A stretch of DNA of 63,135 nucleotides, counting the filler, from Sphingomonadaceae bacterium (lineage in GTDB: Bacteria; Chloroflexota; UBA6077): NCBI GenBank assembly GCA_050261575.1. It is 3 parts of 3 records of this genome, joined end to end, with 100 filler letters (N's around TTAATTAATTAA, not from the genome) between each part and the next. Parts side by side here need not be neighbours in the genome. Positions count along the whole stretch, not along the records: positions 29,026 to 59,705 come from JBLNDL010000052.1; 2 more parts are not named here. The stretch is one strand, 5' to 3'. The translations under genes and the position numbers were made by a program. The notes beneath the pieces are model-generated. The model was not told the DNA's origin. It ran no database searches and worked only from the letters and a program-made list of their open reading frames with translations. Below are positions 20,461 to 48,495 of the stretch, in pieces (the first letter of the stretch is position 1; every line of letters begins with the position of its first letter).

Positions 20461-20502
20461 CCGGGGATGCGGGAGACTCACTTTGCTTAGGGGTTCTCTG
20501 AG

Positions 20503-23500
20503 GTGATACCGTACACCGAAGGTGGAGCGCGATCGGGAGGCGACCACCTCTGGTACAAGGACGCGATCATCTACGAGCTGACCGTCAGGGGCTTCTACGA
20601 CAGCAACGGGGACGGGATCGGCGACTTCCCGGGTCTGACCCAGAAGCTGGACTACATCCAGGACCTAGGCGCGACGGCGATCTGGCTGCTGCCCTTCTAC
20701 CCGTCGCCGCTCAGGGACGATGGCTACGACATCGCCGACTACACGGGGGTGAACCCCATCTACGGCACCCTGCGCGACGTGAGGCTGTTCATCCGGGAGG
20801 CCCACAGACGGGGGCTGCGGATCATCACCGAGTTGGTGTGCAACCACACCTCGGATGCGCACCCCTGGTTCCAGAGGGCGAGGCGGGCCGGGCCCGGCAC
20901 CGCCAGCCGCAACTACTACGTGTGGAGCGAGGACCCAGACAGGTACAGAGAGGCGCGGATCATCTTCAAGGACTTCGAGAACTCCAACTGGTCCTGGGAC
21001 CCCGCGGCCGAGGCATACTACTGGCACCGCTTCTACTCACACCAGCCCGACCTGAACTACGACAGCCCGCAGGTCCGGAAGGCTATCTTCCGGGTGATGG
21101 ACTTCTGGCTCCAGATGGGTGTCGACGGGCTGAGGCTGGATGCCGTCCCCTACCTCTTCGAGCGGGAGGGCACCAACTGCGAGAACTTGCCCGAGACCCA
21201 CGCCTTCCTGAAGGAGCTTCGGCGCCACGTAGACGCCACCTTCAGGAACCGCATGCTGCTGGCCGAGGCTAACCAGTGGCCCGAGCAGGCGGTGGCCTAC
21301 TTCGGGGATGGCGACGAGTGCCACATGGCCTTCCATTTCCCGTTGATGCCCCGCATGTTCATGGCCATCCGCATGGAGGATCGATTTCCCATCGAGGACA
21401 TCATCGCGCAGACGCCCCCGATACCCGAGAACTGCCAGTGGGCCCTCTTCCTCCGCAACCACGACGAACTGACCCTCGAGATGGTCACCGACGAGGAGAG
21501 GGATTACATGTATCGGGTCTACGCCAGCGATCCGGTGGCCAGGATCAACCTGGGCATCCGCCGACGGCTCGCCCCCCTCCTCGGCAACAACCGAAGGCGG
21601 ATCGAGCTGATGAACGGCCTCCTCTTCTCCCTGCCGGGGACGCCCGTCGTATACTACGGGGACGAGATCGGCATGGGCGACAACATCTATCTGGGCGACC
21701 GCAACGGCGTGCGCACCCCGATGCAGTGGAGCGCCGACCGCAACGGCGGCTTCTCCCGGGCCAACCCGCAGCGGCTCTACCTGCCCGTCATTTCAGACCC
21801 CGAGTACAACTACGAGGCCATCCAGGCGGAGACTCAGCAGAACAACCCATCCTCGCTGCTCTGGTGGATGAAGAGGTTGATCGCACTGCGCAAACAGTAC
21901 AGGGCGTTCTCGCGGGGAAGCCTGCGCTTCCTCCATCCGGAGAATCGTAAGGTCCTGGCCTTCCTGCGCAGCTACCAGAGCGAGACGATCCTGGTGGTTG
22001 CCAACCTGTCCCGCCACGCCCAATACGTCCAGCTAGATCTGGGCGAATACCGAGGCATGGTGCCGGTAGAGACATTCGGGGGGGTCCCATTCCCCGCGAT
22101 TGGCGACGCCCCCTACTTCCTCACCCTCGGCTCGCACAGCTTCTACTGGTTCTCGCTGGAACCGGAAGAAGTGGCGCTGCAGGAGGTGAGGCCGATCGAG
22201 CCGAAGGCGAGGATCTCCACCCTGTCCGTGTCCGGATCCTGGCGTCAGCTTCTCCAGGAGAGGGGGGCCACGCCGCTGACGGAAGTCCTCCCCTCCTACC
22301 TCCAAGTCAGACGATGGTTCGGCGGAAAGGCGCGTCGTATCCAGCGAACCAGGATCCTCGACACCGTCCTCGTGCCCTTCGACGACACCGAGGCATACGT
22401 TACCCTGATCGAAGTGAGCTACGCCGAGGGCGACGCAGAGACCTACCAACTCTTCATCACCTTCTCGACCGGGGAGGAGGCCGAGAGGCTGCTGCAGGAG
22501 ATGCCCCACACCGTCGTGGCCAGGGTGAGGACGATGGCCGGCACGGAGGAGGGGGTGTTGCACGACGCACTGGTGATCCCCGGCTTCACCCTGGCGATGC
22601 TGCGGGCGATTCCCAGCCACCGTCGGTTGCGAGGAGCGGAGGGGAGCCTGGTGGGCACGCCGGTGCGCTCGTTCCGTGGGCTGCGCGAGATCGTGGCCGG
22701 CCCCCTGGAGCCGTCGCCCTTGAAGGTGGAACAGAGCAACAGTTCAGTGGCCTACAGCGATCGGTTGGTCATGAAGCTCTTCCGCAAGCTGGAACCAGGG
22801 GTGAATCCGGACCTGGAGATGGGGAGATTCCTCACAGATAGGGGCTTCCCCCACACCCCCCCGACGGCCGGCTCCATCGAGTACCGACGGGAGCAGCGTG
22901 AGCCGTTCACCGTCGCCATACTCCAGGGACACGTGCGCAACGAGGGCGACGCCTGGTCCTTCACCCTCGATAGTCTGGGCCGGTACTTCGAGACGGCGGT
23001 GGCGTCCGAGGTGGAGGCCCGGGAGGTAGCCGGGCTCGTCTCATCCCCGCTGTCGGCTGCCAGCCTGCTGGACCTGGCAACTGAGGAGACCCCAGACCTC
23101 GCTCTCGGCACCATTGGGGCGTATCTGGAGTCGGCGCACCTGATGGGCCGTCGCACCGCAGAGTTGCATCTGGCACTCGCCTCGGACCTCCAGAACCCAA
23201 GCTTCGCACCCGAGCCCTTCACCACCCTGTACCAGCGCTCCATCTACCAGTCCATGCGGGCGCTCGCCCGATCCGTCTTTCAGAGAGTGGCACGGGGCCT
23301 GGCCGGGCTGCCGGAGGAGGTGCAGGCCGACGCACGAGCGGTCCTGGATGCCGAGCCAGCGGTGATCAAGCGCTTCCGCTCGGTGATGGACCGCAAGATC
23401 ACCGCCGTGCGCACCCGTTGCCACGGCGACTACCACCTCGGACAGCTTCTCTACACCGGCAGCGACTTCGTCATCATCGACTTCGAGGGAGAGCCGGCCC

Positions 23501-23876
23501 GCCCCCTCAGTGAGAGGAGGATCAAGCGCTCTCCCATCCGCGACGTGGCAGGGATGCTCCGATCGTTCCACTACGCCTCACACGCGGCACTGCTAGGCCA
23601 GACCGAGAGGGTGGGGATTCGCCCCGAGGACGTGGCCCTATTGCGACCCTGGGCGCGCTACTGGCACCGGTGGGTCAGCGCCACCTTCCTCAAAGCATAC
23701 CTTCAGGCGGCGGAAGGCGCACCCTTCCTGCCGCGGGGCCGCGAGGAGCTGGAGGTGCTGCTGGACGTCTTCCTCCTGGAGAAGGTGGTTTACGAACTGG
23801 ACTACGAGGTGAACAACCGGCCCACCTGGGCTGCAATCCCGATCCAGGGGATCTTGCAACTGATGGAGGTCGAGGG

Positions 23877-23880
<4 letters not shown>
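20503..23880 (+). CDS. treS: Trehalose synthase fused to maltokinase (TreS-Pep2/Mak)
   Basis: [37 protein letters not shown]-terminal kinase with [39 protein letters not shown]. Confidence 0.95.
21652..21756 (+). repeat. 105-bp sequence exactly repeated in inverted orientation at 26183-26287
   Basis: Base-by-base comparison: TACTACGGGGACGAG...GGCGGCTTCTCC equals the reverse complement of 26183-26287. Confidence 0.9.
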
Positions 23881-25777
<1,897 letters not shown>

Positions 25778-25796
<19 letters not shown>

Positions 25797-30617: not shown

Positions 30618-31391
30618 CTACCGCACCACGCCCTCGAGGGGGCTGCTCGCGGAGGCGTACGCCTTCTTCGGGATTCTCCCGGCCAGGTACGCCTTGCGTC
30701 CGGCCTCAACACCCGCCCGCATCGCCTCGGCCATTAGGGCCGGGTTCTGAGCCAGGGCCACGGCGGTGTTGATCAGGCACGCCGATGCGCCCAGTTCCAT
30801 GGCCAGGGCGGCATCGGAGGGCGCTCCGATCCCCGCGTCGACCACGACCGGCACCTTCGCCTGCTCGATGATGATCTTGATCTGCTCGAAGTTCACCAAC
30901 CCCTGTCCCGAGCCAATGGGCGAGGCGAGAGGCATCACCGTCGCGCAGCCGACCTCCTCCAGCCGCTTGGCGAGGACGGGGTCGTCGTTGATGTATGGGA
31001 GCACCACGAAGCCTTCGTCCACGAGCCGCTTGGCGGCCTCTAGGGTGCCGATGGGATCTGGCAGGAGGTACTTCGGATCTGGGATCACCTCGAGCTTCAC
31101 CCAGTTGGAGAGCCCCATGGCCCTCGCCAGGTGGGCCACACGCACCGCCTCATCCGCCGTCTGGCACCCGGCGGTGTTGGGCAGAATGGTGTACCTGCTC
31201 CAGTCGATCTCGTCCAGCAGGGTCTTCTTCTTGGGATCGCTGAGATCCAGTCTTCGCAGGGCTACGGTGATGACCTCGGCCTGGGCCGCCTCGAAGGCTG
31301 CGCGCATCTCCTCGTTGCTGCGATACTTTCCCGTACCCAGGAACAGCCTGGACCGCAGCTCCTTGCCGGCGATTACCAGCCTATCGTCCAT
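30618..31391 (-). CDS. thiG: Thiazole synthase
   Basis: [55 protein letters not shown] 31391. Confidence 0.96.
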
Positions 31392-31502
31392 GTCCACCTC
31401 CTCAATGTGCCTGATGGGCGGGGAACCTGGGTTGTCCCCAGCCCAGGCGGTCGTCAGAGTCACGGCGCGTGAGGGTTGCCGGCGCCGAGATAGCCGCAAC
31501 TG

Positions 31503-32141
31503 CTATCCGTCGGCGTCCAACGACCGCAGCAGTTCCCGCGTAGCCACGGCCACGTCCTCCGCCGACTGGATGGCGGTGATGACCGCCACACCGTCGGCGC
31601 CGGCCCGCATTACCGAGCGGGCGTTGCGCGCATCGATCCCCCCGATGGCGATGACGGGGATCCGCACGGCCGCGGACACCTCGCCCACCAGGCCCAGTCC
31701 GGCGGGCACCCACCCCGGATGGGATCGGGTCTCGAAGATGGTCCCCAGCACCAGGTAATCGGCTCCCTCCGCCTCGGCCAAGAGCGCATCGCCGAGGGAG
31801 TGGACGGAGCAGCCCACGAGCATAGAGTCTCCCACGAGGCGGCGCGCATCCCTCACCGGCAGGCTGCCCCCGCCCAGGTGAACCCCGTCGGCCCCGAGCG
31901 CCATCGCTACGTCGATCCGGTCGTTCACCACCAGGGCCGCCCCGTGGCGCCGCACGGGAACCAAGAGAGCCTCACCCATCTCGCGCAACTGTCGGGCGGG
32001 CAACCCCCTCTCCCGCAACTGCACCAGCCCGACCCCGGCCTCCAAGGCCGAGGCTACCACCGATTCCAGGGGCCGCCCCTGGCAGGCCTCGCGGTCGGTG
32101 ACGAGGCAAAGGATAGGAAGGTGCAGCCGTCGACGATTCAC
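31503..32141 (-). CDS. thiE: Thiamine-phosphate synthase
   Basis: VQLRE, VNDRIDVA, DGVHLG, GCSVHS, IFETRSH, PVIAIGGI. Confidence 0.9.
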   Translation of the reverse strand: MNRRRLHLPILCLVTDREACQGRPLESVVASALEAGVGLVQLRERGLPARQLREMGEALLVPVRRHGAALVVNDRIDVAMALGADGVHLGGGSLPVRDARRLVGDSMLVGCSVHSLGDALLAEAEGADYLVLGTIFETRSHPGWVPAGLGLVGEVSAAVRIPVIAIGGIDARNARSVMRAGADGVAVITAIQSAEDVAVATRELLRSLDADG

Positions 32142-32457: not shown

Positions 32458-32518
32458 TTGACAAGGGGCGGGGGCCGCCCTATATTGTATCGCGAAACTT
32501 GGTTTCACCATCTGGAAG
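32458..32518 (+). promoter_or_regulatory. Sigma70 promoter of the iclR operon with downstream palindromes
   Basis: TTGACA(32458)-N17-TATATT(32481), then GAAAC-ttg-GTTTC and TTTCA-N5-TGGAA. Confidence 0.7.
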
Positions 32519-32571: not shown

Positions 32572-33426
32572 GTGGCAGGCGCTTCTCGCAGAAAAGTCAA
32601 CGAGGACACTTCCTCGAAGACGACCGTCCAATCCGTTGAACGCACCCTCGACATTCTCGAAGCCCTGGCCGCTATGGGTGAGGCAGGCATCGCCCAGCTC
32701 AGCAATCGGGTGGGCCTGCACGCGAGCACCGTCCATCGGTTGCTGGCCACCCTGATCGCACGAGGGTACGTCCGACAGAACCCGGAGTCGGGGCGCTATC
32801 TCCTCGGGCTGAAGCCTCTGGACGTGGCGAGGGCGGTGAGAGCTCATCTCGATCTGCGGATGGAGGCTCTGCCCATCCTGCAGGACCTGATGAAACAGTC
32901 CGGTGAGACGGCCAACTTGGCCGTGCTGGACGATCACCAGATCGTCTATCTGGAGCAGGTATCGAGCCCTGGGTGGATGCTTCGCATGTTCGTTCAGGTA
33001 GGGGCCCGGGCCCCCCTGCACAGCACCGCCTCCGGCAAAGTCCTCCTTGCAGCCCTACCCCCACAAGAGCTGGATGAGCTTCTCCGCTCCTATCCCCTCA
33101 CCCCCTACGCGAGTCGCACCATCGTGGACGCCAGCATCCTGATGGATGAACTGCAGGAGGTGCGCCGGCAGGGTTACGCGACCGACTACGGGGAGCAGGA
33201 GGAGGGGGTGAGCTGCATCGCGGCGCCGGTCCGCGACCACAACGGTCGGGTGGTCGCGGCCATCAGCATCTCCGGCCCCTGGATCCGCATAACACCGGAG
33301 AGGGTGCGGTCGCTGGTCCCGCTGGTTAAGGAGGCCTGCGCTCGCCTTTCGGCGGCGTTGGGATACAAGCCGACCATCAGCCCGGCGATTGACGCAGTAG
33401 TTTTCACACAAGGAGGTGGCGCATGA
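32572..33426 (+). CDS. IclR family transcriptional regulator
   Basis: VQSVERTLDILE, HTH STVHRLLATL, GETANLAV, PLHSTASGK, CIAAPV, AISISGP. Confidence 0.95.
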   Translation: MAGASRRKVNEDTSSKTTVQSVERTLDILEALAAMGEAGIAQLSNRVGLHASTVHRLLATLIARGYVRQNPESGRYLLGLKPLDVARAVRAHLDLRMEALPILQDLMKQSGETANLAVLDDHQIVYLEQVSSPGWMLRMFVQVGARAPLHSTASGKVLLAALPPQELDELLRSYPLTPYASRTIVDASILMDELQEVRRQGYATDYGEQEEGVSCIAAPVRDHNGRVVAAISISGPWIRITPERVRSLVPLVKEACARLSAALGYKPTISPAIDAVVFTQGGGA

Positions 33427-34334
33427 GGATTGCCTTGATTGGGCAGGCGGCCTTCGGCGAGAAGGTTCTCGAGGCTCTCCTGAAGGAGGGCGAGAAGGTA
33501 GTCGTGGTCTACTGCCCGCCGGACGCCCCCAATGGCCGGAAGGACCCCCTGGGAGAGCTAGCCGAGAAGAACGACATCCCCGTCAGGAAGCCGGCGCGAA
33601 TGCGCAATCCCGAGGTCTTCGAGGACTACAAGACCTTCGCCCCCGAACTCAACGTCATGGCGTTCGTCACCGACATCGTACCCATGACGATGATCGATTA
33701 CCCCAAGCTTGGCACCATCCAGTACCACCCGTCCCTCCTGCCCAGGCACCGGGGTGGCAGCGCCATCAACTGGGCGGTAATCAACGGCGAGCAGGAGACG
33801 GGTCTCAGCATCTTCTGGCCGGACGATGGCCTGGACACCGGCCCGATCCTGATGCAGAAGAAGGTCACCATCGAGCCCGACGACACCCTGGGCAGCGTCT
33901 ACTTCAACAAGCTCTTCCCGCTGGGCGTCGAGGCGATGGTCGAGTCGGTGAAGCTGGTTAAAGAGGGTAAGGCGCCCAAGATCGCCCAGGACCTCACCCA
34001 GGGCGAGTACGAACCCCTCTGCAAGAAGATGAGCATCGATTGGTTCTACCCGGTCAACGTCGTCTACAACGTGATCCGAGGCTGCAACCCATCGCCTGGC
34101 GCCAGCACCAGCTACAAGGGCGCGCCCCTCAAGATCTTCGACTGCGAGAAGCGGAGTGTCAGCGGCAAGGATGCCCCCGGCACGGTGCTGGAGATCAACG
34201 ATGACGGCTTCCTCGTGGCCGCTTCCGGCGGAAGCATCTTCGTCAAGAGGGTTCAGCCGCAGGGTTCCGCGAAGGTGAAGGCGGCGGAGTTTGTGGCCGC
34301 TTCCGGTCTGCAGGTAGGCGACAAGCTGGGGTAG
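33423..34334 (+). CDS. Formyltransferase family protein resembling the N-terminal hydrolase domain of 10-formyl-THF dehydrogenase (ALDH1L1)
   Basis: MRIALIGQ..FG, DPLG, ELNV, YHPSLLPRHRGGSAINW, SIFWPDDGLDTG, LFPLG. These match ALDH1L1-Nt as I recall it better than canonical Fmt (GTPEFA, NVHASLLP). Confidence 0.8.
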   Translation: MRIALIGQAAFGEKVLEALLKEGEKVVVVYCPPDAPNGRKDPLGELAEKNDIPVRKPARMRNPEVFEDYKTFAPELNVMAFVTDIVPMTMIDYPKLGTIQYHPSLLPRHRGGSAINWAVINGEQETGLSIFWPDDGLDTGPILMQKKVTIEPDDTLGSVYFNKLFPLGVEAMVESVKLVKEGKAPKIAQDLTQGEYEPLCKKMSIDWFYPVNVVYNVIRGCNPSPGASTSYKGAPLKIFDCEKRSVSGKDAPGTVLEINDDGFLVAASGGSIFVKRVQPQGSAKVKAAEFVAASGLQVGDKLG

Positions 34335-34530
34335 GCAGCCTTCGGCGTTCGGCCGTCAGCCATGAGCCGTCGGCCCCAGACCTGGCAGCGCGGCCAGCGG
34401 CACGTCGAAGCTGACAGCCGATAGCTGATTGCCAAAGGAAGGGAGGTGGCCGATTCCCGATCCGTTTCGTGTACTACCAATAGCAGAGAGCAGCAAGCTC
34501 GCTACATCGAGGAGGAGGCAGTAGTAAAGA

Positions 34531-35106
34531 ATGGCTGGAGATCTTTACGAGGTTCGCTGGCATGCGCGCGGCGGCCAGGGTGCGGTGACGGCATCCCGCT
34601 TCCTGTCGGCTTCGGCAAGCCGCGAGAACAAGCACTTCCAGGGCTTCCCCGAGTTCGGCACCGAGCGCATGGGTGCCCCTATCCAGGCGTTCACCCGACT
34701 GAGCAGCCATCGCATCTTCACCCACGAGCAGGTCCAGAACCCCGATGCCGTCGTGGTGCTGGATCCCACCCTGCTGGAGACCGTGGATGTCACCGCCGGC
34801 CTCAAGCCGGGCGGCCCGCTGATCATCAACTCCGACATGCCAGTCAGCGAGTTGAAGAAGCAGTTGAAGCCCGGCGACTACAAGCTGTACACCGTGGACG
34901 CCACGAAGATCGCCACCGAGTGCGTCGGCCGACCCATCACCAACACGGCCATGGTGGGCGCGTTGGTGAAGGTGGTAGGGCTGATCGACTTCGAGAACGT
35001 GAAGGCTGAGCTGATCAGCATGTTCGGCACCCGCTTCAAGAAGTCGGTGGTCGAGGGCAACGTCAAGGCGCTGGAGAGGGCCTACGAGGAGGTAAAGGGC
35101 GAATGA
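34531..35106 (+). CDS. 2-oxoacid:ferredoxin oxidoreductase gamma subunit
   Basis: WHARGGQGAVTA, FPEFGTERMGAP, VVLDPTL, NTAMVGAL. Confidence 0.92.
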   Translation: MAGDLYEVRWHARGGQGAVTASRFLSASASRENKHFQGFPEFGTERMGAPIQAFTRLSSHRIFTHEQVQNPDAVVVLDPTLLETVDVTAGLKPGGPLIINSDMPVSELKKQLKPGDYKLYTVDATKIATECVGRPITNTAMVGALVKVVGLIDFENVKAELISMFGTRFKKSVVEGNVKALERAYEEVKGE

Positions 35107-35456
35107 GCAAGATCCACGAGGTAAAGCCGGGTACATTCCCCACTGTCGACGAGATACCGCTGGGTGGGATCATCCCCAGCAACGGCAACGGTGTGTTCAA
35201 CAAGACCGGCAACTGGCGAACCCAGCGCCCGATCTTCAACGCTTCCGTCTGCACCAACTGCCTGCTCTGCTGGCTCCACTGCCCCGACGATTCCATCCTG
35301 TTGGAGGACGGGAAGGTAGTGGGGATCGACGCCGATCACTGCAAGGGTTGCGGCATCTGCGCCGCCGAGTGCGGCTCCAAGCCGGTGAAGGCGATCACCA
35401 TGGAGCAGGGCGGCCGCTATCAGCCCAACGAGACCTTCGCCAGGCATACACTGTAA
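35103..35456 (+). CDS. 2-oxoacid:ferredoxin oxidoreductase delta (2x[4Fe-4S]) subunit
   Basis: TGNWRTQRP, CTNCLLCWLHCP, CKGCGICAAEC. Confidence 0.92.
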   Translation: MSKIHEVKPGTFPTVDEIPLGGIIPSNGNGVFNKTGNWRTQRPIFNASVCTNCLLCWLHCPDDSILLEDGKVVGIDADHCKGCGICAAECGSKPVKAITMEQGGRYQPNETFARHTL

Positions 35457-35468
35457 GGAGATCGAGGG

Positions 35469-36671
35469 ATGACGATTACTGAGAAGCCCGTACGAAAGGT
35501 TGTTGGTCTCACCGGTGACGGGGCTGCCGCCGACGCGATGATGCAGATCAACCCGGACCAGGTAGCGGCCTACCCGATCACCCCGCAGACCGAGATCGTC
35601 GAGCGGTTCGCCGAGTACGTGGCGAACGGGGAAGTCGACACCGAGTTCGTGGCCGTCGAGAGCGAGCACAGCGCCCTCTCCGCCTGCTGCGGTGGCTCTG
35701 CCGCCGGCGGCCGGGTGATGACCTGCACCTCCTCCCAGGGTCTCGCCCTGATGCACGAGGAGCTGTTCATCGCCTCCGGCAACCGGCTGCCCATCGTCAT
35801 GCCGATGGTCAACCGAACGCTGAGCGCCCCCATCAACATCCACGGGGATCACTCCGACTCGATGGCCTCCCGCGACGCGGGCTGGATCCAGCTCTTCTGC
35901 GCGGACGCCCAGGAGGTGTACGACACCACCATTATGGCGGTCAGGATCGCCGAGCATCCCGAGGTGAGCCTGCCGGTCATGGTCTGCTTCGACGGCTTCA
36001 GCGTCTCCCACGACATGGAGCGGGTGGAGATGCTGGACAAGGCCGAGGTCCAGTCCTTCGTCGGCGAGTACAAACCGCAGATCAACATGCTGGATCCGGA
36101 GAACCCGATCACCATCGGCTCCCTGGTCCTTCCCCCCTTCTTCTTCGAGCACAAGGTGTCGATGATCAAGGCCCTAGAGGGCTCCATCAAGGTCATCGAG
36201 TCGGTGTTCAACGAGTTCGCGGCCTTGAGCGGCCGGCCTCAGCCCATCGTCGAGAGCTACGGCATGGAGGACGCGGAAGTAGCCGTGGTCGCACTCTCCG
36301 GCATCGGCGGGACCGCGCAGTGGACCGCGATGCAGTTGCGTGAGCAGGGGATCAAGGCCGGCGTGGTGCGGCCTCGAGTCTACCGCCCCTTCCCCGCGCA
36401 GCCGATCGTCGATCTGCTGAAGAAGGTCAAGGCCGTGGCCGTGGTGGAGCGGGCCACCGCCCCCGGTGCCCCCGCCTCCCCGATCTTCGAGGACCTGGCC
36501 GCGGCGATGTACGACCTGCCGGTCCGCCCCAGGATGGTCAACTACGTGACTGGCCTGGGTGGCCGCGACACCTCCTCCGCTCAGTTCACCGCTGTCTTCA
36601 ACCGGCTGCAGGGCCTCGCCAAGGGCGAGTCGCTGGGTCCGGTTGTCAGCTATCTCGGCGCACGGGAATAG
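35469..36671 (+). CDS. 2-oxoacid:ferredoxin oxidoreductase alpha subunit
   Basis: AAYPITPQT, VESEHSA, TSSQGL, NRTLSAPINIHGDHSD, YRPFP, GLGGRD. Confidence 0.93.
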   Translation: MTITEKPVRKVVGLTGDGAAADAMMQINPDQVAAYPITPQTEIVERFAEYVANGEVDTEFVAVESEHSALSACCGGSAAGGRVMTCTSSQGLALMHEELFIASGNRLPIVMPMVNRTLSAPINIHGDHSDSMASRDAGWIQLFCADAQEVYDTTIMAVRIAEHPEVSLPVMVCFDGFSVSHDMERVEMLDKAEVQSFVGEYKPQINMLDPENPITIGSLVLPPFFFEHKVSMIKALEGSIKVIESVFNEFAALSGRPQPIVESYGMEDAEVAVVALSGIGGTAQWTAMQLREQGIKAGVVRPRVYRPFPAQPIVDLLKKVKAVAVVERATAPGAPASPIFEDLAAAMYDLPVRPRMVNYVTGLGGRDTSSAQFTAVFNRLQGLAKGESLGPVVSYLGARE

Positions 36672-36683
36672 GAGAGATAGACG

Positions 36684-37616
36684 ATGGCAATAAACCTGAA
36701 AGAGCTCGCCAAGAAGGAAGTCAAGTTCACCTCCGGCCACCGGCTCTGCACCGGCTGCGGCCCGGCGATCATCGCCAAGTGGACGATGCTCGCGGCGGCG
36801 GACTACAACGTCGCCATGAGCAGCGCCACCTGCTGCGTCGAGATCTCCAGCGCCGTCTTCCCCTTCACTAGCTGGAAGGTGTCGTGGTACCACAACGCCT
36901 TCGAGAACGCCGGCGCCGTGATCGGCGGCATCGAGGCCACCTACAAGGCCTTGAAGCGGAAGGGCAAGATCGACAAGGACTTCAAGTTCATCGCCATGGG
37001 CGGTGACGGTGGCACCTACGACATCGGCTTCCAGTCGCTCTCCGGCATGGCCGAGCGGGGCCACAACTGCCTGTACATCTGCTACGACAACAACGCCTAC
37101 ATGAACACCGGTATCCAGCGCTCCGGCGCCACGCCGAAGTACGCCTGGACTACCACATCCTACGTCGGCGACGCCTACCAGGGTAAGCAGCAGCGGCGGA
37201 AGGACCTGGTGTCCATCATGGCCGCCCACGACATCCCCTACGTCGCCCAGGCCAGCATCGGCTACTGGCGCGACTACATGAACAAGGTGCAGAAGGCACT
37301 GGAGACCCCTGGGCCTTCCTTCATCGCGGTCTACGCCCCCTGCTTCCGCGGTTGGCGCGCCGAGACCGACCAGACCGTCGAGCTGGGTCGGCTGGCCGTC
37401 CAGTCACGGTACTGGCCGCTCTTCGAGGTCGTCGATGGCAAGTGGAAGATGACCTACGAGCCCAGGGAGACCAAGCCGCTGGCGGACTTCCTGAAGCCCC
37501 AGGGCCGCTTCAGCCACCTGTTCAAGCCCGGCTACGAACACCTGATGGAGGACTTCCAGAAGGAAGTGGACTGGAAGTGGGATCAGTTGCAGAGGCGCAT
37601 CGCCGCTTCCGCGTAG
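36684..37616 (+). CDS. 2-oxoacid:ferredoxin oxidoreductase beta (TPP-binding) subunit
   Basis: GHRLCTGCG, AFEN, GGDGGTYDIG, YDNNAYMNTGIQRS, PC, QGRFSHL. Confidence 0.93.
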   Translation: MAINLKELAKKEVKFTSGHRLCTGCGPAIIAKWTMLAAADYNVAMSSATCCVEISSAVFPFTSWKVSWYHNAFENAGAVIGGIEATYKALKRKGKIDKDFKFIAMGGDGGTYDIGFQSLSGMAERGHNCLYICYDNNAYMNTGIQRSGATPKYAWTTTSYVGDAYQGKQQRRKDLVSIMAAHDIPYVAQASIGYWRDYMNKVQKALETPGPSFIAVYAPCFRGWRAETDQTVELGRLAVQSRYWPLFEVVDGKWKMTYEPRETKPLADFLKPQGRFSHLFKPGYEHLMEDFQKEVDWKWDQLQRRIAASA

Positions 37617-37858: not shown

Positions 37859-39262
37859 GTGATACGGCAGCAACTACTGGAAGAGCTGTCCCAGATCGTC
37901 GGCAAAGAGGACGTTCTCACCTCTCGTCGAGACTTGTTGGTGTACGAGTACGATTCCACGCCGGATCTCTTCGAGCCCGAAGTGGTGGTATTCCCCGCCA
38001 ATGCCGCCGAGGCCTCCGCAGTGATGCGGCTGGCCGAGAGGGAAGGGTTGACCGTGGTCCCGAGGGGTGCGGGCACCAACCTGTCCGGTGGCACTCTCGC
38101 CCTCAAGGGCGGGATCGTCATCGGGTGCACCCGGATGAAGCGGGTGCTGGAGGTCGACACGGCCAACGAGCGTGCGGTGGTGGAGCCTGGCGTCATCAAC
38201 CTGGATCTTCAGAACCTGCTCGCCCCCATGGGCTACCTGTACGCGCCCGACCCTGCGAGCCAGAAGGTATCCACCATGGGAGGCAACGTCGGCGAGAACT
38301 CCGGCGGCCCCCACTGCCTCAAGTACGGCGTCACCACCAATCACGTGTACGGGCTCGAACTGGTGCTACCCGATGGCAAAGTGATCCACACCGGCGGCCC
38401 GTGCGAGGATAACCCAGGCTACGACCTGACCGGCATCGTCGTGGGCTCCGAAGGCACTTTCGGTTTCGTCACCTCCATGACCCTCCGCCTCATGCGGGTT
38501 CCCGAGGCGATCAAGACGATGCTGGCCATCTTCGACACCCTGGAGGACTCCGGAAACGCCGTGTCGGACATCATAGCCGACGGCATCCTCCCGGCGACCC
38601 TGGAGATCATGGACAAGACCGTCACCTGGGCGGTCGAGGAGAGCACCCACGCGGGATATCCACTGGATGCCGAGGGCATCCTGATCATCGAACTGGACGG
38701 GCTGAAGGATGGGCAGGACAGGCAGGCCGAGAGGATCGTGGAGATCTGCAAGAAGAACCACGTCCGCGACATCAAGGTCGCCCAGAGCGATGCGGAGCGC
38801 AACATCCTGTGGGCCGGCCGCCGAGGGGCCTTCGGCGCCGTCGCCCGCGTGGCGCCCATGTACTCCGTGCAGGACGGTACCGTCCCCCGCACCAAGCTCT
38901 CCGAGACGATGCTGAAGGTGGTGGAGATCGCCAAGAAGCACAACGTGAAGGTCGGAACCGTCGCCCACGCCGGCGACGGCAACCTGCACCCGCTGATCAT
39001 GTACAACCCCAAGGACAAGGAGGAGATCAAGCGGGTGCACGAGGCCGGCCTCGAGATCCTGAAGCTGTGTGTCGACATGGGCGGCACCCTCACCGGCGAA
39101 CACGGCATCGGGATCGAGAAGCAGGGATCCATGCCGCTGGTCTTCAACGAGGCCGAGGTGGAGACCATGGCGCGGGTCAAGAAAGCCTTCGACCCCAACA
39201 ACCGGTTCAACCCGGATAAGATCCTGCCCCTGAAGAAGGTAGCCGAAGGAGTGGGGGTGTAG
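37859..39262 (+). CDS. glcD: Glycolate oxidase/dehydrogenase FAD subunit (GlcD family)
   Basis: PRGAGTNLSGG, YAPDPASQ, GGNVGENSGGPHCLKYGVT, GSEGT, HAGDGNLHP, GEHGIG. Confidence 0.9.
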   Translation: MIRQQLLEELSQIVGKEDVLTSRRDLLVYEYDSTPDLFEPEVVVFPANAAEASAVMRLAEREGLTVVPRGAGTNLSGGTLALKGGIVIGCTRMKRVLEVDTANERAVVEPGVINLDLQNLLAPMGYLYAPDPASQKVSTMGGNVGENSGGPHCLKYGVTTNHVYGLELVLPDGKVIHTGGPCEDNPGYDLTGIVVGSEGTFGFVTSMTLRLMRVPEAIKTMLAIFDTLEDSGNAVSDIIADGILPATLEIMDKTVTWAVEESTHAGYPLDAEGILIIELDGLKDGQDRQAERIVEICKKNHVRDIKVAQSDAERNILWAGRRGAFGAVARVAPMYSVQDGTVPRTKLSETMLKVVEIAKKHNVKVGTVAHAGDGNLHPLIMYNPKDKEEIKRVHEAGLEILKLCVDMGGTLTGEHGIGIEKQGSMPLVFNEAEVETMARVKKAFDPNNRFNPDKILPLKKVAEGVGV

Positions 39263-39264
39263 CG

Positions 39265-40623
39265 ATGACGCTGGCAACTGAAAGGCTAGAGGCAACCCGC
39301 AAGCGGCTGGCCGAGATCGTCGGGCCGACGGGCGTCCTGGTCGACGATCAGGCGGCCGCGTTCTCGGCCCATGGAGAGGCGCCCGTCGCGGTGGCGCTAC
39401 CCACCGAGGAGGGTCAGGTCGCGGAGGTGGCTCGCCTGGCCTCCGCCGAGGGGGTCCCGGTCGTGGCGTGGGGCAGCGGCACCAAACAGGACATCGAGCC
39501 GGTGCAGCCAAGGGAGGGGATCGTCCTCGGATTGGGCCAGTTGAACGGCACACTGGAGCTGGACGCCGCGAACCTCACGGTAACCGTCGGCGCAGGCAAG
39601 GTGGTGGACGACCTCCAGCGGGAGCTGGCGGAGGTGAAGCTCTTCCTGCCGCTGGACCCTGTGGACTCCGCGCGAGCGACCATCGGCGGAACCCTCGCCA
39701 CAAACAGCAGCGGCCCCAACCGCCTGCTGTACAGAACTGCCAGAGACATGGTGCTCGGTTTGAGGGTCGTCACGCCCACCGGCGACGTGATTCGCGTGGG
39801 CGGGAAGACCGTCAAGGACGTCGCTGGCTACGACATGAAGAAGCTGTACATCGGCTCGTGGGGCACGCTGGGGGCCATCACCGCGGCCACTTTCCGGCTG
39901 CTGCCGCTCCCCGAAGCCAGCGCCACCGTGGTCATGGTATTCCCGCAGCTATCCAGTGGTTGCTCGATGGTATCCGACATTCTGGCCTCCTTCATGAGAC
40001 CCTCCACAGCGGAGCTGGTGAGCTACGGCGCGATGCCCGCCCCCGTGCAGGAGGTTTTCAGCCTAAGGTCCGGCGAGTACCTCCTGCTGGTGCAGGTGGA
40101 GGGCGCCGTGGAGGCGGTGGAACGGCAGAAGAGGGAACTGGCCGAGCTGGCGGGGAAGAACGGCGCGCGCGAGGTCTCCCCCCTGGAAAAGGGCGAGGAG
40201 AAGGAGCTGTGGAGCTACCGCAAGGAGGTCTTCGGCACGTTGCCGGCGGACGCGGCCGCGATGGTGATGAAGGGCTCCGTGCTGTTGAAGAGGGTCGGCG
40301 ACTTCACAGGCGCGTTGATGAGCATGCAGGAGCAGGGTCTCCAGACCTCCTTCGCATCCCACGCCGGAAACGGCATCGTCTACGCCCTGTTGGCGGCCGA
40401 GCCCGGCGGAGAGGAGAAGCTGATATCGGCGGCCGGGAGGCTGCAGCAGGTCGCCACCCAGTGCGGCGGCTTCGCCCTGGTCCAGAAGGCCCCTCGCAGC
40501 GTGGTAGAGAAGGTGCGGTTGTGGCCGCCCAGGGACGACTACGGGCTGATGAGGGAGATCAAGGCTCAACTGGACCCCAACAACCTGTGGAATCCAGCGC
40601 GGATCCCCGGAGGGAGGGTGTAG
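39265..40623 (+). CDS. glcE: Glycolate oxidase FAD-binding subunit (GlcE family)
   Basis: ATIGGTLATNSSGP, GGKTVKDVAGYDMKKLYIGSWGTLG, LDPNNLWNP. Confidence 0.87.
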   Translation: MTLATERLEATRKRLAEIVGPTGVLVDDQAAAFSAHGEAPVAVALPTEEGQVAEVARLASAEGVPVVAWGSGTKQDIEPVQPREGIVLGLGQLNGTLELDAANLTVTVGAGKVVDDLQRELAEVKLFLPLDPVDSARATIGGTLATNSSGPNRLLYRTARDMVLGLRVVTPTGDVIRVGGKTVKDVAGYDMKKLYIGSWGTLGAITAATFRLLPLPEASATVVMVFPQLSSGCSMVSDILASFMRPSTAELVSYGAMPAPVQEVFSLRSGEYLLLVQVEGAVEAVERQKRELAELAGKNGAREVSPLEKGEEKELWSYRKEVFGTLPADAAAMVMKGSVLLKRVGDFTGALMSMQEQGLQTSFASHAGNGIVYALLAAEPGGEEKLISAAGRLQQVATQCGGFALVQKAPRSVVEKVRLWPPRDDYGLMREIKAQLDPNNLWNPARIPGGRV

Positions 40624-41913
40624 ATGGCTACGGGAACCGGTGCACAGAGCAAGACGGCGTCCGCCCTGTCTCAAATGGTGGAGAAGTGCAACCGCTGCGG
40701 CTTCTGCCAGGCGGGCTGCCCCACCTACAAAGTCACCGGCCTCGAGTGGCAGGTGTCCCGGGGCCGAGTAGCGCTGGTGAGGGACATCCTGGATGGCCGT
40801 ATCGACCTGCTGGAGGAGGACATCCGCGAGGCCCTGGGCACCTGCCTCCGCTGTGGCGGATGCACCACCCACTGCCCCCCTCAGGTCCCAACCCCTGAGA
40901 TCGTGGACAAGGCGATCGAGGAGTTGGCGCGGCTGAAGGGCCAACCCTGGGTCCAGCGTGTGATCTTCCGGAACCTGCTGCCGAATCCCGGGTTGCTGAG
41001 CACAGCAGGGAAGGCGATCTGGCTGGGTCAGGTCACCGGAGCGCAGGCGGCGGCCAAGGGACTCGGGATCACCAAGGTCCTCGGGAAGGACCCCCACAGG
41101 GCCCAGGACAACCTGCCCAGGGTGCCCTCCAAGAACGCCCGCCAGATGCTGCCCTCCATGATGCGTCCGGTGCCGGATCGAAGGTACCGAGTGGCGTACT
41201 TCATGGGCTGCGCCACCAACCTGCTCTATCCGGAGGTCGCGGCCTCCATGCTCCGGGTGCTGTACGCGAACAGCACCGAGGTGCTGCTTCCAGAGGTGGT
41301 GGACTGCGGCAAGCCGCCGATGGTGTACGGCGACCTGGAGGCGGCCCGCGACCTGGCGAGGATGAACATCGACGCCCTTTACGGCCTCGACGTGGACGCT
41401 GTCGTCACCGACTGCGCGACCTGCGGCTCCTTCCTCAAAGAGTACGGCAAGCTGATGGCAGAGGACGCGCAGTACGCCGCCAAGGCCAAGGCGGTGTCCG
41501 CCAAGGTGAAGGACATCAGCGAATTCCTCGACGGCATCCAGCTCAACGACGAGATGGGAGAGGTGAAGAGCAAGATCACCTACCACGATCCGTGCCATCT
41601 GGTGCGGTTCCAGAAGGTGAGCGCGCAGCCACGGAAGCTGCTGAAGGGCATTCCCGGCCTCGAGTTCAAGGAGATGGCCGAGGCGGACATGTGCTGCGGC
41701 GGGGCCGGCTCCTTCTCCCTGACCCACTTCGATCTGTCGCAGCAGGTGCTCGAAAGGAAGATGGGGAACGCCTCCAAGACTGGGGCGGCCTACGTGGCAA
41801 CGGGATGCCCGGCCTGCATGATGCAGCTCTCCGCAGGCGTCCGCAAGGAGGGCATGCAGGCGGAGGTCATCCACACGATCCAGTTGCTGGACCGGGCCTA
41901 CCAGGCGAAGTAG
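40624..41913 (+). CDS. glcF: Glycolate oxidase iron-sulfur subunit (GlcF family)
   Basis: CNRCGFCQAGCPTY, CLRCGGCTTHCP, YFMGC, YHDPCH, CCGGAG, CPACMMQ. Confidence 0.87.
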   Translation: MATGTGAQSKTASALSQMVEKCNRCGFCQAGCPTYKVTGLEWQVSRGRVALVRDILDGRIDLLEEDIREALGTCLRCGGCTTHCPPQVPTPEIVDKAIEELARLKGQPWVQRVIFRNLLPNPGLLSTAGKAIWLGQVTGAQAAAKGLGITKVLGKDPHRAQDNLPRVPSKNARQMLPSMMRPVPDRRYRVAYFMGCATNLLYPEVAASMLRVLYANSTEVLLPEVVDCGKPPMVYGDLEAARDLARMNIDALYGLDVDAVVTDCATCGSFLKEYGKLMAEDAQYAAKAKAVSAKVKDISEFLDGIQLNDEMGEVKSKITYHDPCHLVRFQKVSAQPRKLLKGIPGLEFKEMAEADMCCGGAGSFSLTHFDLSQQVLERKMGNASKTGAAYVATGCPACMMQLSAGVRKEGMQAEVIHTIQLLDRAYQAK

Positions 41914-42008: not shown

Positions 42009-42094
42009 CTGAGGCGATCTTCAACCCTGCGCACTATCAGCCACGCAAAGATCGCCCCAGCTTCGTTCATCAACTTGTGGGAGGTTGTGGTACT

Positions 42095-43789
42095 GTGCTT
42101 AGCGACCTGGAGATCGCCCAAGCGGCAAAGATGAAGCCCATCACCGAGATCGCGGCGGGACTTGGCCTGCTCGAAGACGAAGTAGAGCCCTACGGGAAGT
42201 ACAAGGCCAAGATCAGCCTCGACGTGCTGGAACGGCTGAAGGACAGACCCAACGGCAAGCTGATCGACGTGACCGCCATCACTCCGACCCCCCTCGGTGA
42301 GGGGAAGACCGTCACCACCATTGGACTCTCGCAAGCGCTGGGCTACATCGGCAAGAGGGTGTTCACCTGCATCCGCCAGCCGTCCCTCGGGCCTGTCTTC
42401 GGCATCAAGGGGGGTGCCGCCGGGGGTGGCTACTCGCAGGTGGTCCCGATGGAGGACTTCAATCTCCATCTGACCGGTGACGTTCACGCGGTGGGCGCAG
42501 CCCACAACTTGCTGGCCGCGTTTATCGACAACCACATCCACCACGGAAACGCGCTGGGGATCGATCCGTTCAGCATCACCTGGCCACGGGTGATGGACAT
42601 CAGCGACCGGGCGATGCGCCAGATCATCGTCGGTCTCGGGGGCAAGGACAACGGTCACCCCAGGCAGACCGGGTTCGACATCACCGTGGCCTCCGAGGTG
42701 ATGGCCATCCTCGCCCTCACCACCAGCCTCAAGGATCTGCGCGAGCGGCTGGGCAGGATCGTCGTCGGGCTGACCAAGGACGGCAAGGCTGTAACGGCAG
42801 AGGACCTGAAGTGCGCAGGCGCCATGGCCGTCCTCCTGAAGGACGCCATCAAGCCGAACCTGCTGCAGACGCTGGAGCACACCCCCGTCTTCGTGCACGC
42901 CGGCCCCTTCGCCAACATCGCTCACGGCAACAGCTCCATCCTGGCCGACCAGATCGCCCTGAAGCTGGCCGACTACGTCGTGACCGAGAGCGGCTTCGGT
43001 GCCGATATGGGCGCCGAGAAGTTCATGGACATCAAGTGCCGGTACAGCGGCGCCGTGCCCAGCGCCGTGGTGATGGTCTGCTCCATCCGCGCCCTCAAGA
43101 TGCACAGTGGCAAGTTCAGGGTGGTGGCCGGTAAGCCACTGGATCCGGGCCTGACCCAAGAGAACCTGCAGGCGGTGGCGGAGGGCTGCTCCAATCTGGA
43201 GAAGCAGATCGAGAACATGAAGCTGTTCGGCGTGCCGGTGGTGGTCGCCATCAACCGCTTCACGACCGACACCGACAACGAGATCAAGGTGGTGAAGGAG
43301 AAGGCACTCGCCGCCGGGGCCGAGGGCGCGTACGTCAGCGAGGTGTGGGCAAAGGGAGGCGCAGGCGGCGCCGAGCTTGCCGAAGCCGTAGTGAAGGCAG
43401 CCAGCAAGCCGAACAGCTTCCGCTTCCTCTACCCCCTGGATATGCCGATCAAGGAGAAGATCGAGACCATCGCCACGAAGATCTACGGCGCCGACGGGGT
43501 GGACTACCTGCCAGCCGCAGAGACGAAGATCAAGCGGTACACGGAGTTGGGCTTCGACAAGCTGCCCATCTGCATGGCGAAGACCCACCTCTCCCTCTCC
43601 CACGAGCCCAGTTGGAAGGGCCGGCCGCGTGGCTATCGCATCCCGATCAGGGACATCCGGGCCTCGGTGGGAGCCGGCTTCCTCTACCCGCTCCTGGGCG
43701 AGATGCGCACCATGCCGGGTCTCCCCTCGAGGCCGGCCGGAGAGCACGTGGACATCGACGAGGAGGGCAGGACCCTCGGGCTGTTCTAA
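42095..43789 (+). CDS. fhs: Formate--tetrahydrofolate ligase
   Basis: [63 protein letters not shown] start 42095. Confidence 0.97.
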
Positions 43790-47882: not shown

Positions 47883-48495
47883 AGCTGGACCGTGGCGGCA
47901 AGGCCATGAGGGAGACCGCCGCCGTGGCAGCGGTGGCGCCACTCCGCAGGAAAGGCATCGAGAGCAGCAAGTACGCCGCGTTGAGGAGCGTGTAGGCCAG
48001 CACCACCTGCTGGGTGCTCGGGCCAAGGTCGCCGGCACGAAGCACCAGGAAGGCATCGCTGGAGTTGCCCAGGGCGAAGAGCATGCTCACCCCCAGGAAG
48101 ACCCAGTAGCCCCCGGCGGGCGCGAAGTGGGAAGCCTTCTCGCCGCGCCTCTCCCCACATCCCCGTCCCGTCTCTCCCACGAGCCCGATCAGCAGCAGCG
48201 ACGCGATGCCGGGGATGAAGGCCAGGGCAAAGACGAGCCTCAGATCTCCCCCCAACAGACCCAGGACGCAGAAGGCAAGAAGCGGACCGAAAACGGCGCC
48301 CAGGGTGTCCACCGAGCGGTGGAAGCCGAACGGCCGCCCCAGGTTCTCCACGGTGCGGGACTCCGCACTGACGTCGGTGAACAGGCGTGCCAGCCCGGGC
48401 ACGCAGACGTCGCGGCTCACCCCAGGCACGAGCGAGCGCACGGTAGCGGCCGAAGGGGCATCGCAATGCACGCCGAACGACGGCGCCCGTTTCAT
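47869..48495 (-). pseudogene. Truncated MFS transporter fragment
   Basis: GRPFGFHRSVDTLGAVFGPL and LFALGNSSDAFLVLRA are MFS motifs, but only about 200 aa remain. Confidence 0.65.

Follow-up and report, generated by a model that had tools for sequence, protein, structure and literature searches.

A stretch of DNA of 63,135 nucleotides, filler included (hereafter, the window), from a bacterium of the phylum Chloroflexota deposited as Sphingomonadaceae bacterium (GCA_050261575.1), encodes a stand-alone formyltransferase (FT) that is distinct from the housekeeping methionyl-tRNA formyltransferase (Fmt) and is best explained, judging from sequence comparison, as a free-standing representative of the bacterial formyltransferase lineage that gave rise to the N-terminal domain of ALDH1L1. 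The chances appear about even that FT is a formyl-CoA:tetrahydrofolate formyltransferase, which would catalyse the reaction formyl-CoA + tetrahydrofolate (THF) <-> 10-formyl-THF + CoA. This chemistry is itself already known, having been shown for the enzyme LctF and proposed for HypX. The new element is the conserved, narrowly distributed operon that couples FT to a ferredoxin-dependent 2-oxoacid oxidoreductase (OFOR) and a glycolate-oxidase-like complex (Table 1).

Kinship of FT with ALDH1L1 and separation from Fmt

FT combines the Pfam domains Formyl_trans_N (1.4e-35) and Formyl_trans_C (1.7e-18), and all the motifs that an earlier note on this DNA had listed are present in its translation, namely, IGQAAFG, DPLG, ELNV, YHPSLLPRHRGGSAINW, SIFWPDDGLDTG, LFPLG and EGKAP. 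The same note had likened FT to ALDH1L1 and predicted that annotation pipelines would name it methionyl-tRNA formyltransferase. The prediction is borne out by the source records of close FT homologs, which carry that name, and the likeness by phylogenetic analysis. In a careful tree (57 rows, LG+C20, ultrafast bootstrap/SH-aLRT), FT does not fall within the true Fmt but joins the ALDH1L1 N-terminal domains in a clade with a support of 100/99. A quick tree of 179 rows, into which 50 full-length loci of the 56 members of the FT family found in other lineages (see below) were entered and 6 partial loci were not, contains a 103-row clade (SH-aLRT 99) that unites FT, all 50 full-length loci and the ALDH1L1-type fusions; the E. 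coli Fmt, the Fmt of the bacterium's own genome and ArnA lie outside this clade. Proteins with all the ALDH1L1 domains (Formyl_trans_N/C, PP-binding and Aldedh) are found among the best 150 representatives in a library of 1.8 billion proteins.

The best solved relative of FT by sequence is the hydrolase domain of ALDH1L1/FDH (PDB 4qpd, E 7.5e-66, FT residues 1-241), followed by weaker matches to the best Fmt (4iqf, 3.7e-49) and to HypX (3.4e-10). An AlphaFold (AF2) model of FT built from a 56-row alignment has a pLDDT of 95.9, and 4qpd again ranks first in a Foldseek search with this model (E 2.4e-37, TM 0.89). Fold search as such fails to discriminate between the ALDH1L1 N-terminal domain and Fmt, with a TM of 0.89 for the former versus up to 0.93 (4iqf) for the latter.

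The FDH domain moves the formyl group onto the 4'-phosphopantetheine of a carrier via His106, Ser108 and Asp142, as described in the available text of PMC6802093, and this set is matched in FT by H102, S104 and D138. Across an alignment with 58 rows from the clade, 6 of the ALDH1L type and 26 of Fmt, these three residues are invariant (58/58, 6/6 and all Fmt rows). Basic residues specific to the clade are K146, K163, R276 and K284. The Asn that stands two residues before the His (N-x-H-x-SLLP) is present in all 26 Fmt rows and in none of the 58 clade rows, where it is replaced by Q (46/58, including Q100 of FT), C (10/58), M (1) or L (1); the ALDH1L rows have I, C or V at this position. The motif HPS, found in 58/58 clade rows and 6/6 ALDH1L rows, replaces the H-G/A/S-S of Fmt. 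The loop after strand 2 (between P33 and A47) comprises 13-14 residues in 58/58 clade rows versus 19-20 in 26/26 Fmt rows, where we take it to be the long basic loop that recognizes the initiator tRNA in the E. coli Fmt-tRNA structure. The net charge of the C-terminal domain is of no use as a discriminator (+4 in FT, with a median of +3 in the clade and +2.5 in Fmt).

The fmt model TIGR00460 gives FT 164.5 bits, below its cut-off of 201.5, and the remaining formyltransferase models all fail as well (ArnA, 113 < 777 bits; PurN, 53 < 150; PurU NF004684, 17.9 < 223); an ACT domain, as in the N-terminus of PurU, was not found in FT by Pfam. Besides FT, the genome contains two PF00551 genes, on contigs C17 and C77. 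The C17 gene is a short frame taken for PurN, a candidate label. The gene on C77 is the canonical fmt, which reads NVHASLLPRWRG and scores 294.8 bits with TIGR00460, above the cut-off. Thus, the separate fmt that the earlier note had envisaged exists, although def is not beside it in the 3.5 kb inspected, nor does it accompany FT in the stretch read there. Among 5 other FT-bearing genomes examined, 4 have an fmt above the cut-off (273-299 bits), and the fifth has an fmt-like gene split in two frames. FT is distinct from Fmt because it scores below the fmt cut-off, lacks the Asn, has the shorter loop, belongs to a separate clade and shares its genome with a canonical fmt.

Genomic context of FT and its family

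The window is a join of contigs, and the real contig neighbourhood of FT is confined to positions 29026-59705 (G000:C52:1-30680 in the bacterium's own genome). The genes for GlgE, TreS-Mak and GlgB at 18463-25796 belong to a different contig and are not neighbours of FT.

FT is present in all 4 other genomes of its own family at 80-86% identity and was not found in a sample of 37 genomes covering six further families of the same order. The operon, in the order IclR, FT, OFOR gamma, delta, alpha and beta, GlcD, GlcE, GlcF and formate-tetrahydrofolate ligase (FTHFS), is complete in one of these four relatives (G001) and is kept up to the contig ends in the other three; the IclR gene precedes FT in all four as well as in three metagenome loci (L126-L128). 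In a genome from another family of the class (G046), FT and OFOR alpha are 60% and 66% identical to their counterparts, the arrangement of FT followed by the four OFOR genes is retained, and genes for a xylose-isomerase-like TIM-barrel protein, GlcD and GlcE are next to it in divergent orientation. Orthologs of OFOR alpha with at least 66% identity are limited to 6 of 66 genomes of the class, the ones in which FT is adjacent, and the next tier, at 50-54%, consists of paralogs. A metagenome scan with OFOR alpha yielded 5 loci with 83-89% identity, of which the three that are long enough all keep the gene order, in two cases as far as FTHFS.

A scan of one genome per species identified 80 loci, comprising 56 members of the FT family (42-75% identical to FT) and 24 ordinary Fmt (32-36%), which serve as controls; neighbors were found by de novo clustering of the surrounding open reading frames (ORFs). 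The commonest neighbor of FT is a family III CoA-transferase directly upstream, followed by a thiamine diphosphate (ThDP) enzyme. Frc-like genes are located within 750 bp upstream of FT on the same strand in 20/56 loci, next to FT on the opposite strand in 1/56 and about 8 kb away in 2/56. Oxc with at least 72% identity occurs near FT in 14/56 loci, a distinct ThDP enzyme resembling 2-hydroxyacyl-CoA lyase (HACL-like) in 6/56, including one in Chloroflexota (L030), and FTHFS directly 3' of FT in 4/56. Altogether, Frc, Oxc or the HACL-like enzyme is found near FT in 24 of the 56 family loci versus 0 of the 24 Fmt control loci, a count that overstates independence, many of the loci coming from closely related bacteria (Burkholderiales) and some of the contigs being short. 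Nevertheless, FT is linked to formyl-CoA enzymes in more than one subclade, and the ThDP partner differs between them. The examples tested meet the equivalog cut-offs for Frc (556.8, 696.8 and 599.1 > 504.2 bits) and Oxc (983.4 > 739.4). The HACL-like enzymes are under every cut-off, with PRK05858 and 2-hydroxyacyl-CoA lyase as the nearest models; they may be replacements of Oxc or a different source of formyl-CoA. They are encoded beside Frc and FT in L021, L022, L025, L026 and L057 (about 1.4-1.9 kb upstream of FT) as well as in L030 (8325-9968).

Because its family neighbors elsewhere are Frc, Oxc or HACL-like enzymes and FTHFS, the reading of FT as a formyl-CoA:THF formyltransferase gains support. 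The earlier note had suggested, in view of the OFOR next door, that FT may link formyl-CoA with formyl-THF. The link as such is supported by these neighbors and by the precedent of LctF (as given in the available part of PMC11730586), whereas the transfer to or from CoA and the CoA dependence and substrate of the OFOR stay presumptive. Neither the OFOR nor GlcDEF is syntenic with FT across the 56 family loci of other lineages, apart from one OFOR, seemingly unrelated, that is situated about 8 kb off on the other strand (L019), and therefore the OFOR link is lineage-specific.

Within the operon, the start of FT overlaps the stop of the iclR gene (ATG at 33423-33425 and TGA at 33424-33426, forming ATGA at 33423-33426), and a ribosome-binding site, AAGGAGGTG, is located at 33410-33418, 5 nt 5' of the ATG. 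The four-subunit OFOR begins 196 nt 3' of FT, and a carrier domain is neither fused to FT, which has only 303 aa, nor adjacent to it, the gap before the next gene being too short; the overlap, the OFOR and the missing carrier had all been described in the earlier note. In an alignment of the spacer between FT and OFOR gamma from 8 relatives, conservation is confined to GAGGAGGAGGC...ATGGC. A riboswitch or another structured leader in this spacer was considered and rejected, with no match in Rfam and 0 predicted pairs across the 8 aligned spacers. Contigs from RNA libraries (4 soil metatranscriptome runs from 2 studies) match the OFOR genes at 99-100% identity, and one such contig of 471 nt spans 34042-34512, that is, the 3' end of FT and the spacer; no RNA-library contig covers the IclR gene and most of FT, which is uninformative in either direction. 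In one RNA run, there is a contig-level 'skip' at 35363-35533, one side of which consists of 26 letters.

Table 1. Features of the FT operon, with positions in the window
Feature	Position	Strand	Evidence and remarks
Sigma-70-like promoter candidate	32458-32486	+	TTGACA-17-TATATT, 11/12 matches, consensus match only; upstream of the IclR gene
IclR-family regulator	32572-33426	+	First gene of the operon; Pfam HTH_IclR + IclR_C
FT, stand-alone formyltransferase of the ALDH1L1 N-terminal type	33423-34334	+	303 aa, no internal stops; proposed formyl-CoA:THF formyltransferase
FT-OFOR spacer	34335-34530	+	196 nt, non-conserved; ends in the conserved ribosome-binding site of OFOR gamma
OFOR gamma (PorC/VorC type)	34531-35106	+	Pfam POR 1.2e-42; TIGR02175 214.4 > 81.1 bits
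OFOR delta (2x[4Fe-4S] ferredoxin-like)	35103-35456	+	Fer4 families; TIGR02179 90.7 > 60.05 bits
OFOR alpha	35469-36671	+	POR_N + PFOR_II; carries YPITP and PINIHGDH
OFOR beta (ThDP-binding)	36684-37616	+	TPP_enzyme_C; PorB 355 < 405 bits; PDB 9bt4_C 4.2e-78
GlcD-like FAD 2-hydroxyacid oxidase subunit	37859-39262	+	FAD_binding_4 + FAD-oxidase_C; TIGR00387 498.4 < 567.9 bits
GlcE-like subunit	39265-40623	+	FAD_binding_4 + FAD-oxidase_C; GlcE model 139.7 < 284 bits
GlcF-like Fe-S (CCG) subunit	40624-41913	+	CCG x2 + Fer4; GlcF model 211.2 < 333 bits
FTHFS	42077-43789	+	FTHFS 1.1e-267; NF010030 839.5 > 652 bits

The surroundings of the operon include, on the minus strand and divergent from it, a TPP riboswitch (RF00059, 32301-32402, 69.1 bits versus a gathering score of 54.3) that precedes thiE (31503-32141) and thiG (30618-31499), the position of ThiE and ThiG being kept in relatives. 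On the 3' side are genes for an Nramp-family metal transporter (44471-45961, plus strand, 181.5 > 50 bits) and a MurJ flippase (46305-48056, minus strand), neither with an evident link to the operon.

Proposed pathway and competing explanations

Under the proposal, FT would use an ALDH1L1-type mechanism with His102, Ser104 and Asp138. The hydrolysis free energies are approximately -35 kJ/mol for a thioester and -23 kJ/mol for 10-formyl-THF, and thus, the FT reaction would be directed mildly towards 10-formyl-THF and would be reversible in vivo. From the gene content of the operon, a route can be envisaged in which the GlcDEF-like complex would oxidize glycolate to glyoxylate; the adjacent OFOR would convert glyoxylate to formyl-CoA, CO2 and reduced ferredoxin; FT would transfer the formyl group from formyl-CoA to THF, giving 10-formyl-THF; and FTHFS would release formate with the formation of ATP, or else the unit would enter one-carbon (C1) metabolism. 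The whole would be under the control of the IclR-type regulator. The conservation of the formyl thioester as ATP would be the C1 analog of the branch from acetyl-CoA to acetate and ATP, and in reverse, the same enzymes would make glyoxylate from formate and CO2, a natural 'glyoxylate synthase' route. That the FT-linked OFOR turns glyoxylate into formyl-CoA and CO2, giving an ATP-yielding (anaerobic) glycolate/glyoxylate route, we regard as possible, if on the doubtful side.

Several features of the genome, which is rated 100% complete with 4.8% contamination, bear on this route. Among the NCBIfam models, the IclR regulator best matches BhcR (228.4 bits, below the cut-off of 350), and we take the models nearest to this protein to be those of glyoxylate-responsive regulators. 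Malate synthase and isocitrate lyase were not found in the genome, nor was a glyoxylate carboligase above the cut-off, the best match (350.8 < 711 bits) being IlvB. FolD is encoded, as is a formate dehydrogenase that reads through an in-frame TGA (855.9 > 666 bits). With the usual glyoxylate sinks not found and formate dehydrogenase present, glyoxylate derived from glycolate would therefore be without its usual sink and formate would have an outlet. The formate dehydrogenase gene on contig C18 (G000:C18:15415-17412, minus strand) is located about 8 kb from folD; this match and another of the formate dehydrogenase type (G000:C6:44180-44941) have one in-frame TGA each and are probably selenocysteine enzymes. 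A family III CoA-transferase gene on contig C56 with a nearby ThDP enzyme was considered as a source of formyl-CoA and rejected, the ThDP enzyme being IlvB, followed by IlvN and LeuA.

OFOR alpha falls below the cut-offs of the PorA_Arch model (454.4 < 550 bits) and of the model for the alpha subunit of oxalate oxidoreductase (OOR; 268 < 500), and its best PDB match is a four-subunit pyruvate:ferredoxin oxidoreductase (PFOR; 9bt4_B, 9e-85), with the OOR 5c4i second. The hallmark of OOR is the Arg in the YPI(R)P motif, and OFOR alpha reads YPITP where OOR reads YPIRP. The OFOR is not OOR-like, scoring below the OOR cut-offs not only in alpha but also in beta (270.8 < 590) and with the delta model (56 and 78 < 230). 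The motif PINIHGDH, which the FT-linked orthologs have in common, was considered as a glyoxylate signature and rejected given that it also occurs in the 50-54% identical paralogs that have no link to FT (L121-L124). The neighborhoods of these paralogs, which include genes for Pyr_redox_2, OMP decarboxylase and MurJ, are uninformative; in two genomes, the paralog of this group (L134:5015-6304 and L135:5424-6737) is preceded by a Pyr_redox_2 flavoprotein and an unassigned 230-aa ORF. The genome encodes 8 POR_N paralogs, and the OFOR of the operon is the only one linked to FT. A better candidate for PorA is located on contig C96 (524 versus 454 bits for the FT-linked OFOR alpha), which leaves room for a specialization of the OFOR in the operon. 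The C96 OFOR (G000:C96:6227-14056, L136) adjoins a tungsten-type aldehyde:ferredoxin oxidoreductase and a long zinc alcohol dehydrogenase, a set suggestive of a module for pyruvate, aldehydes and alcohols.

A number of observations weigh against FT as a formyl-CoA enzyme or against the glyoxylate route. The OFOR keeps the PFOR-type Thr of YPITP as well as the Arg and shows no feature specific to glyoxylate; GlcD, GlcE and GlcF are each under the equivalog cut-off, and two further GlcDEF-like sets are encoded in the genome. Enzymes of the GlcDEF type also oxidize D-lactate. The FTHFS gene of the operon is the sole tblastn match in the genome, and the place of this single-copy gene could be partly a housekeeping matter. 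The operon has been seen in a single narrow lineage and in one genome of a second family, and such kin do not count as independent cases. The RNA-library contigs, for their part, could include DNA and are no proof that the genes share one transcript. Frc and Oxc above the cut-off were not found in the genome (best matches, 187.7 and 192.3 bits). The closest relatives of FT outside its own family (L004, L005 and L007, 72-75% identity; L015 and L059, 65-68%) have no C1 or formyl-CoA neighbors and are found amid genes for aminotransferase, MFS, EamA and dihydroorotate dehydrogenase. The family members from Thermodesulfobacteriota and Nitrospirota are surrounded by housekeeping genes (gltX, prfA, prmC and trpEG), and in 4 genomes with such FT neighborhoods, Frc and Oxc above the cut-off were not found either. 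The role of the family therefore need not involve the known formyl-CoA enzymes. In Thermodesulfobacteriota and kin (L008, L010, L014, L016, L023, L036 and L051), FT is part of a conserved block consisting of gltX, FT, small ORFs, an HDAC-like deacetylase, prfA and prmC, and formyl-CoA enzymes were not found near FT in these loci. In Nitrospirota, FT members are near trpEG and plsX.

The alternatives concern either the pathway or the reaction of FT. It is doubtful, albeit to be reckoned with, that the operon is an ordinary module for the conversion of D-lactate or another 2-hydroxyacid via pyruvate to acetyl-CoA, in which the GlcDEF-like complex is a lactate dehydrogenase, the OFOR is a PFOR, and FT and FTHFS are merely co-located folate genes, an explanation that does not necessarily touch on the FT reaction. 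The PFOR-like residues and best PDB match of OFOR alpha, the lack of a residue-level glyoxylate signature in the OFOR, the sub-threshold scores of GlcD, GlcE and GlcF, and the location of the only FTHFS of the genome all speak for such a module. However, the better PorA candidate lies on C96 beside the aldehyde and alcohol enzymes; the adjacency of FT and OFOR persists in another family, where their identities have dropped to 60% and 66%; the OFOR ortholog group is found within the class only where FT is adjacent (6/66 genomes); FT elsewhere accompanies ThDP enzymes of two other types, with formyl-CoA as their known or expected product; and the usual glyoxylate sinks were not found in the genome.

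With respect to the reaction, it seems unlikely that FT is a 10-formyl-THF hydrolase, functionally akin to PurU, that would balance the folate pool by setting formate free and recovering THF, in the manner of the isolated ALDH1L1 N-terminal domain in vitro. Consistent with this function, the nearest solved relatives bear the name 'hydrolase domain', many family members are in housekeeping settings with formyl-CoA enzymes neither nearby nor in the genome, and none of the 3 PF00551 genes was seen as a PurU-type match. Yet the PurU model stays far under its cut-off on FT, and hydrolysis next to FTHFS would forgo the ATP that this ligase is able to conserve and would leave the tight placement of FT behind frc, oxc or HACL-like genes (24/56 loci) unexplained; furthermore, the hydrolase reaction of FDH requires millimolar 2-mercaptoethanol, a thiol requirement in vitro that is thought to be unphysiological (PMC2788200, available text, citing Krupenko 1995). 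A different acceptor, either a 4'-phosphopantetheine carrier encoded elsewhere and acting in trans or a small-molecule amino group as in ArnA and the sugar N-formyltransferases, is quite unlikely. The Formyl_trans_N/C fold does serve many acceptors, and carrier-bound pantetheine is the natural acceptor of the ALDH1L1 domain (PMC6802093, available text), but a carrier gene or domain is absent from the operon and from the conserved family neighborhoods, sugar-nucleotide genes and those for nonribosomal peptide or polyketide synthases (NRPS/PKS) are absent nearby, and the recurrent family neighbors make or use free formyl-CoA. Finally, the database label, under which FT would be a second Fmt, is highly improbable: the two-domain fold is Fmt-like (TM 0.93 to 4iqf), the net charge of the C-terminal domain resembles that of Fmt, and the source records use this name, but the score under the fmt cut-off, the replaced invariant Asn, the shortened loop, the phylogenetic separation and the canonical fmt in the same genome all contradict it.

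If FT is indeed a formyl-CoA:THF formyltransferase, it would connect formyl-CoA and 10-formyl-THF, the two activated forms of formate. To our knowledge, no free-standing enzyme of central metabolism with this function has been described, and the only precedents found belong to an antibiotic pathway (LctF) and to hydrogenase maturation (HypX). Through such an enzyme, the folate C1 pool would be supplied by the breakdown of oxalate, of 2-hydroxyacyl-CoA and possibly of glycolate, which would spare the ATP of formate-THF ligase or could gain ATP through that ligase, and the OFOR context would add a ferredoxin-linked source of formyl-CoA. The family is widespread and mislabelled, and thousands of 'methionyl-tRNA formyltransferase' annotations would then be wrong, and designers of synthetic formate and formyl-CoA pathways would have a natural enzyme at their disposal. 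In the open-access literature, we found no description of a glyoxylate:ferredoxin oxidoreductase that yields formyl-CoA; a ferredoxin-linked activity that supplies formyl-CoA was met there only in discussions of theoretical pathways.

Comparison with known systems

The OFOR of the operon shares the gamma-delta-alpha-beta gene order with PFOR (PorCDAB, PDB 9bt4) and OOR (5c4i). It further resembles PFOR in the gamma and delta subunits, which score above the Por/Vor subfamily cut-offs, and in the conserved Thr of YPITP and Arg, but differs in that alpha and beta are under the PorA and PorB cut-offs and in having PINIHGDH where PFORs have IWNDH or IFGDH.

The frc-oxc operons for oxalate and oxalyl-CoA, such as those of Oxalobacter, E. 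coli (yfdUW) and Cupriavidus necator (PMC7486775, available text), are a parallel in gene context, with other members of the FT family directly behind frc and oxc and formyl-CoA as the common intermediate. In the place of Frc and Oxc, which were not found above the cut-off in the window and genome of FT, the operon described here has a GlcDEF-like complex and a ferredoxin-dependent OFOR. In C. necator, glyoxylate is oxidized via oxalyl-CoA, Oxc and Frc, and a formyltransferase is not mentioned in the available text of that report (PMC7486775); likewise, we found no description of an FT-type enzyme in oxalate or glycolate operons in the open-access literature.

Among the formyltransferases, Fmt (TIGR00460; PDB 2fmt, 4iqf) has in common with FT the two-domain fold, the SLLP-RG motif, the His and the Asp, but is set apart from it by the model score, the Asn, the longer loop and its own clade, with a true fmt located elsewhere in the FT genome. 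The N-domain of HypX/HoxX, which is involved in CO synthesis for [NiFe]-hydrogenase (PDB 6j0p, 6j1f) and is the proposed maker of formyl-CoA from 10-formyl-THF (PMC6802093, available text), has the same formyltransferase fold but is distant from FT (E 3.4e-10, TM 0.72). The HypX domain is part of a fusion with an enoyl-CoA-hydratase-like decarbonylase, its CoA is permanently bound, and its triad carries Asp where FT has Ser. LctF, from the lactacystin pathway of Streptomyces lactacystinicus, is a stand-alone Fmt-like enzyme that is reportedly 32% identical to Fmt and for which formyl transfer from 10-formyl-THF to CoA, the reverse of the reaction proposed for FT, has been demonstrated in vitro; it differs from FT in belonging to secondary metabolism, where it supplies the acyltransferase domain of a PKS (PMC11730586).

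The N-terminal domain of ALDH1L1/FDH (PDB 4qpd, 2bw0, 1s3i, 7rlu) is the nearest counterpart of FT, being its top sequence and fold match and a member of the same clade and sharing with it the His/Ser/Asp set, HPS, Q8, S113, G136, the missing Asn and the short loop, as well as, presumably, formyl transfer directed to a thiol. In contrast to ALDH1L1, FT is a free-standing bacterial protein of 303 aa that is encoded in a catabolic operon and has neither a carrier nor an aldehyde dehydrogenase domain; its presumed thiol would be that of free CoA in place of a tethered pantetheine, and its reaction would likely run towards 10-formyl-THF.

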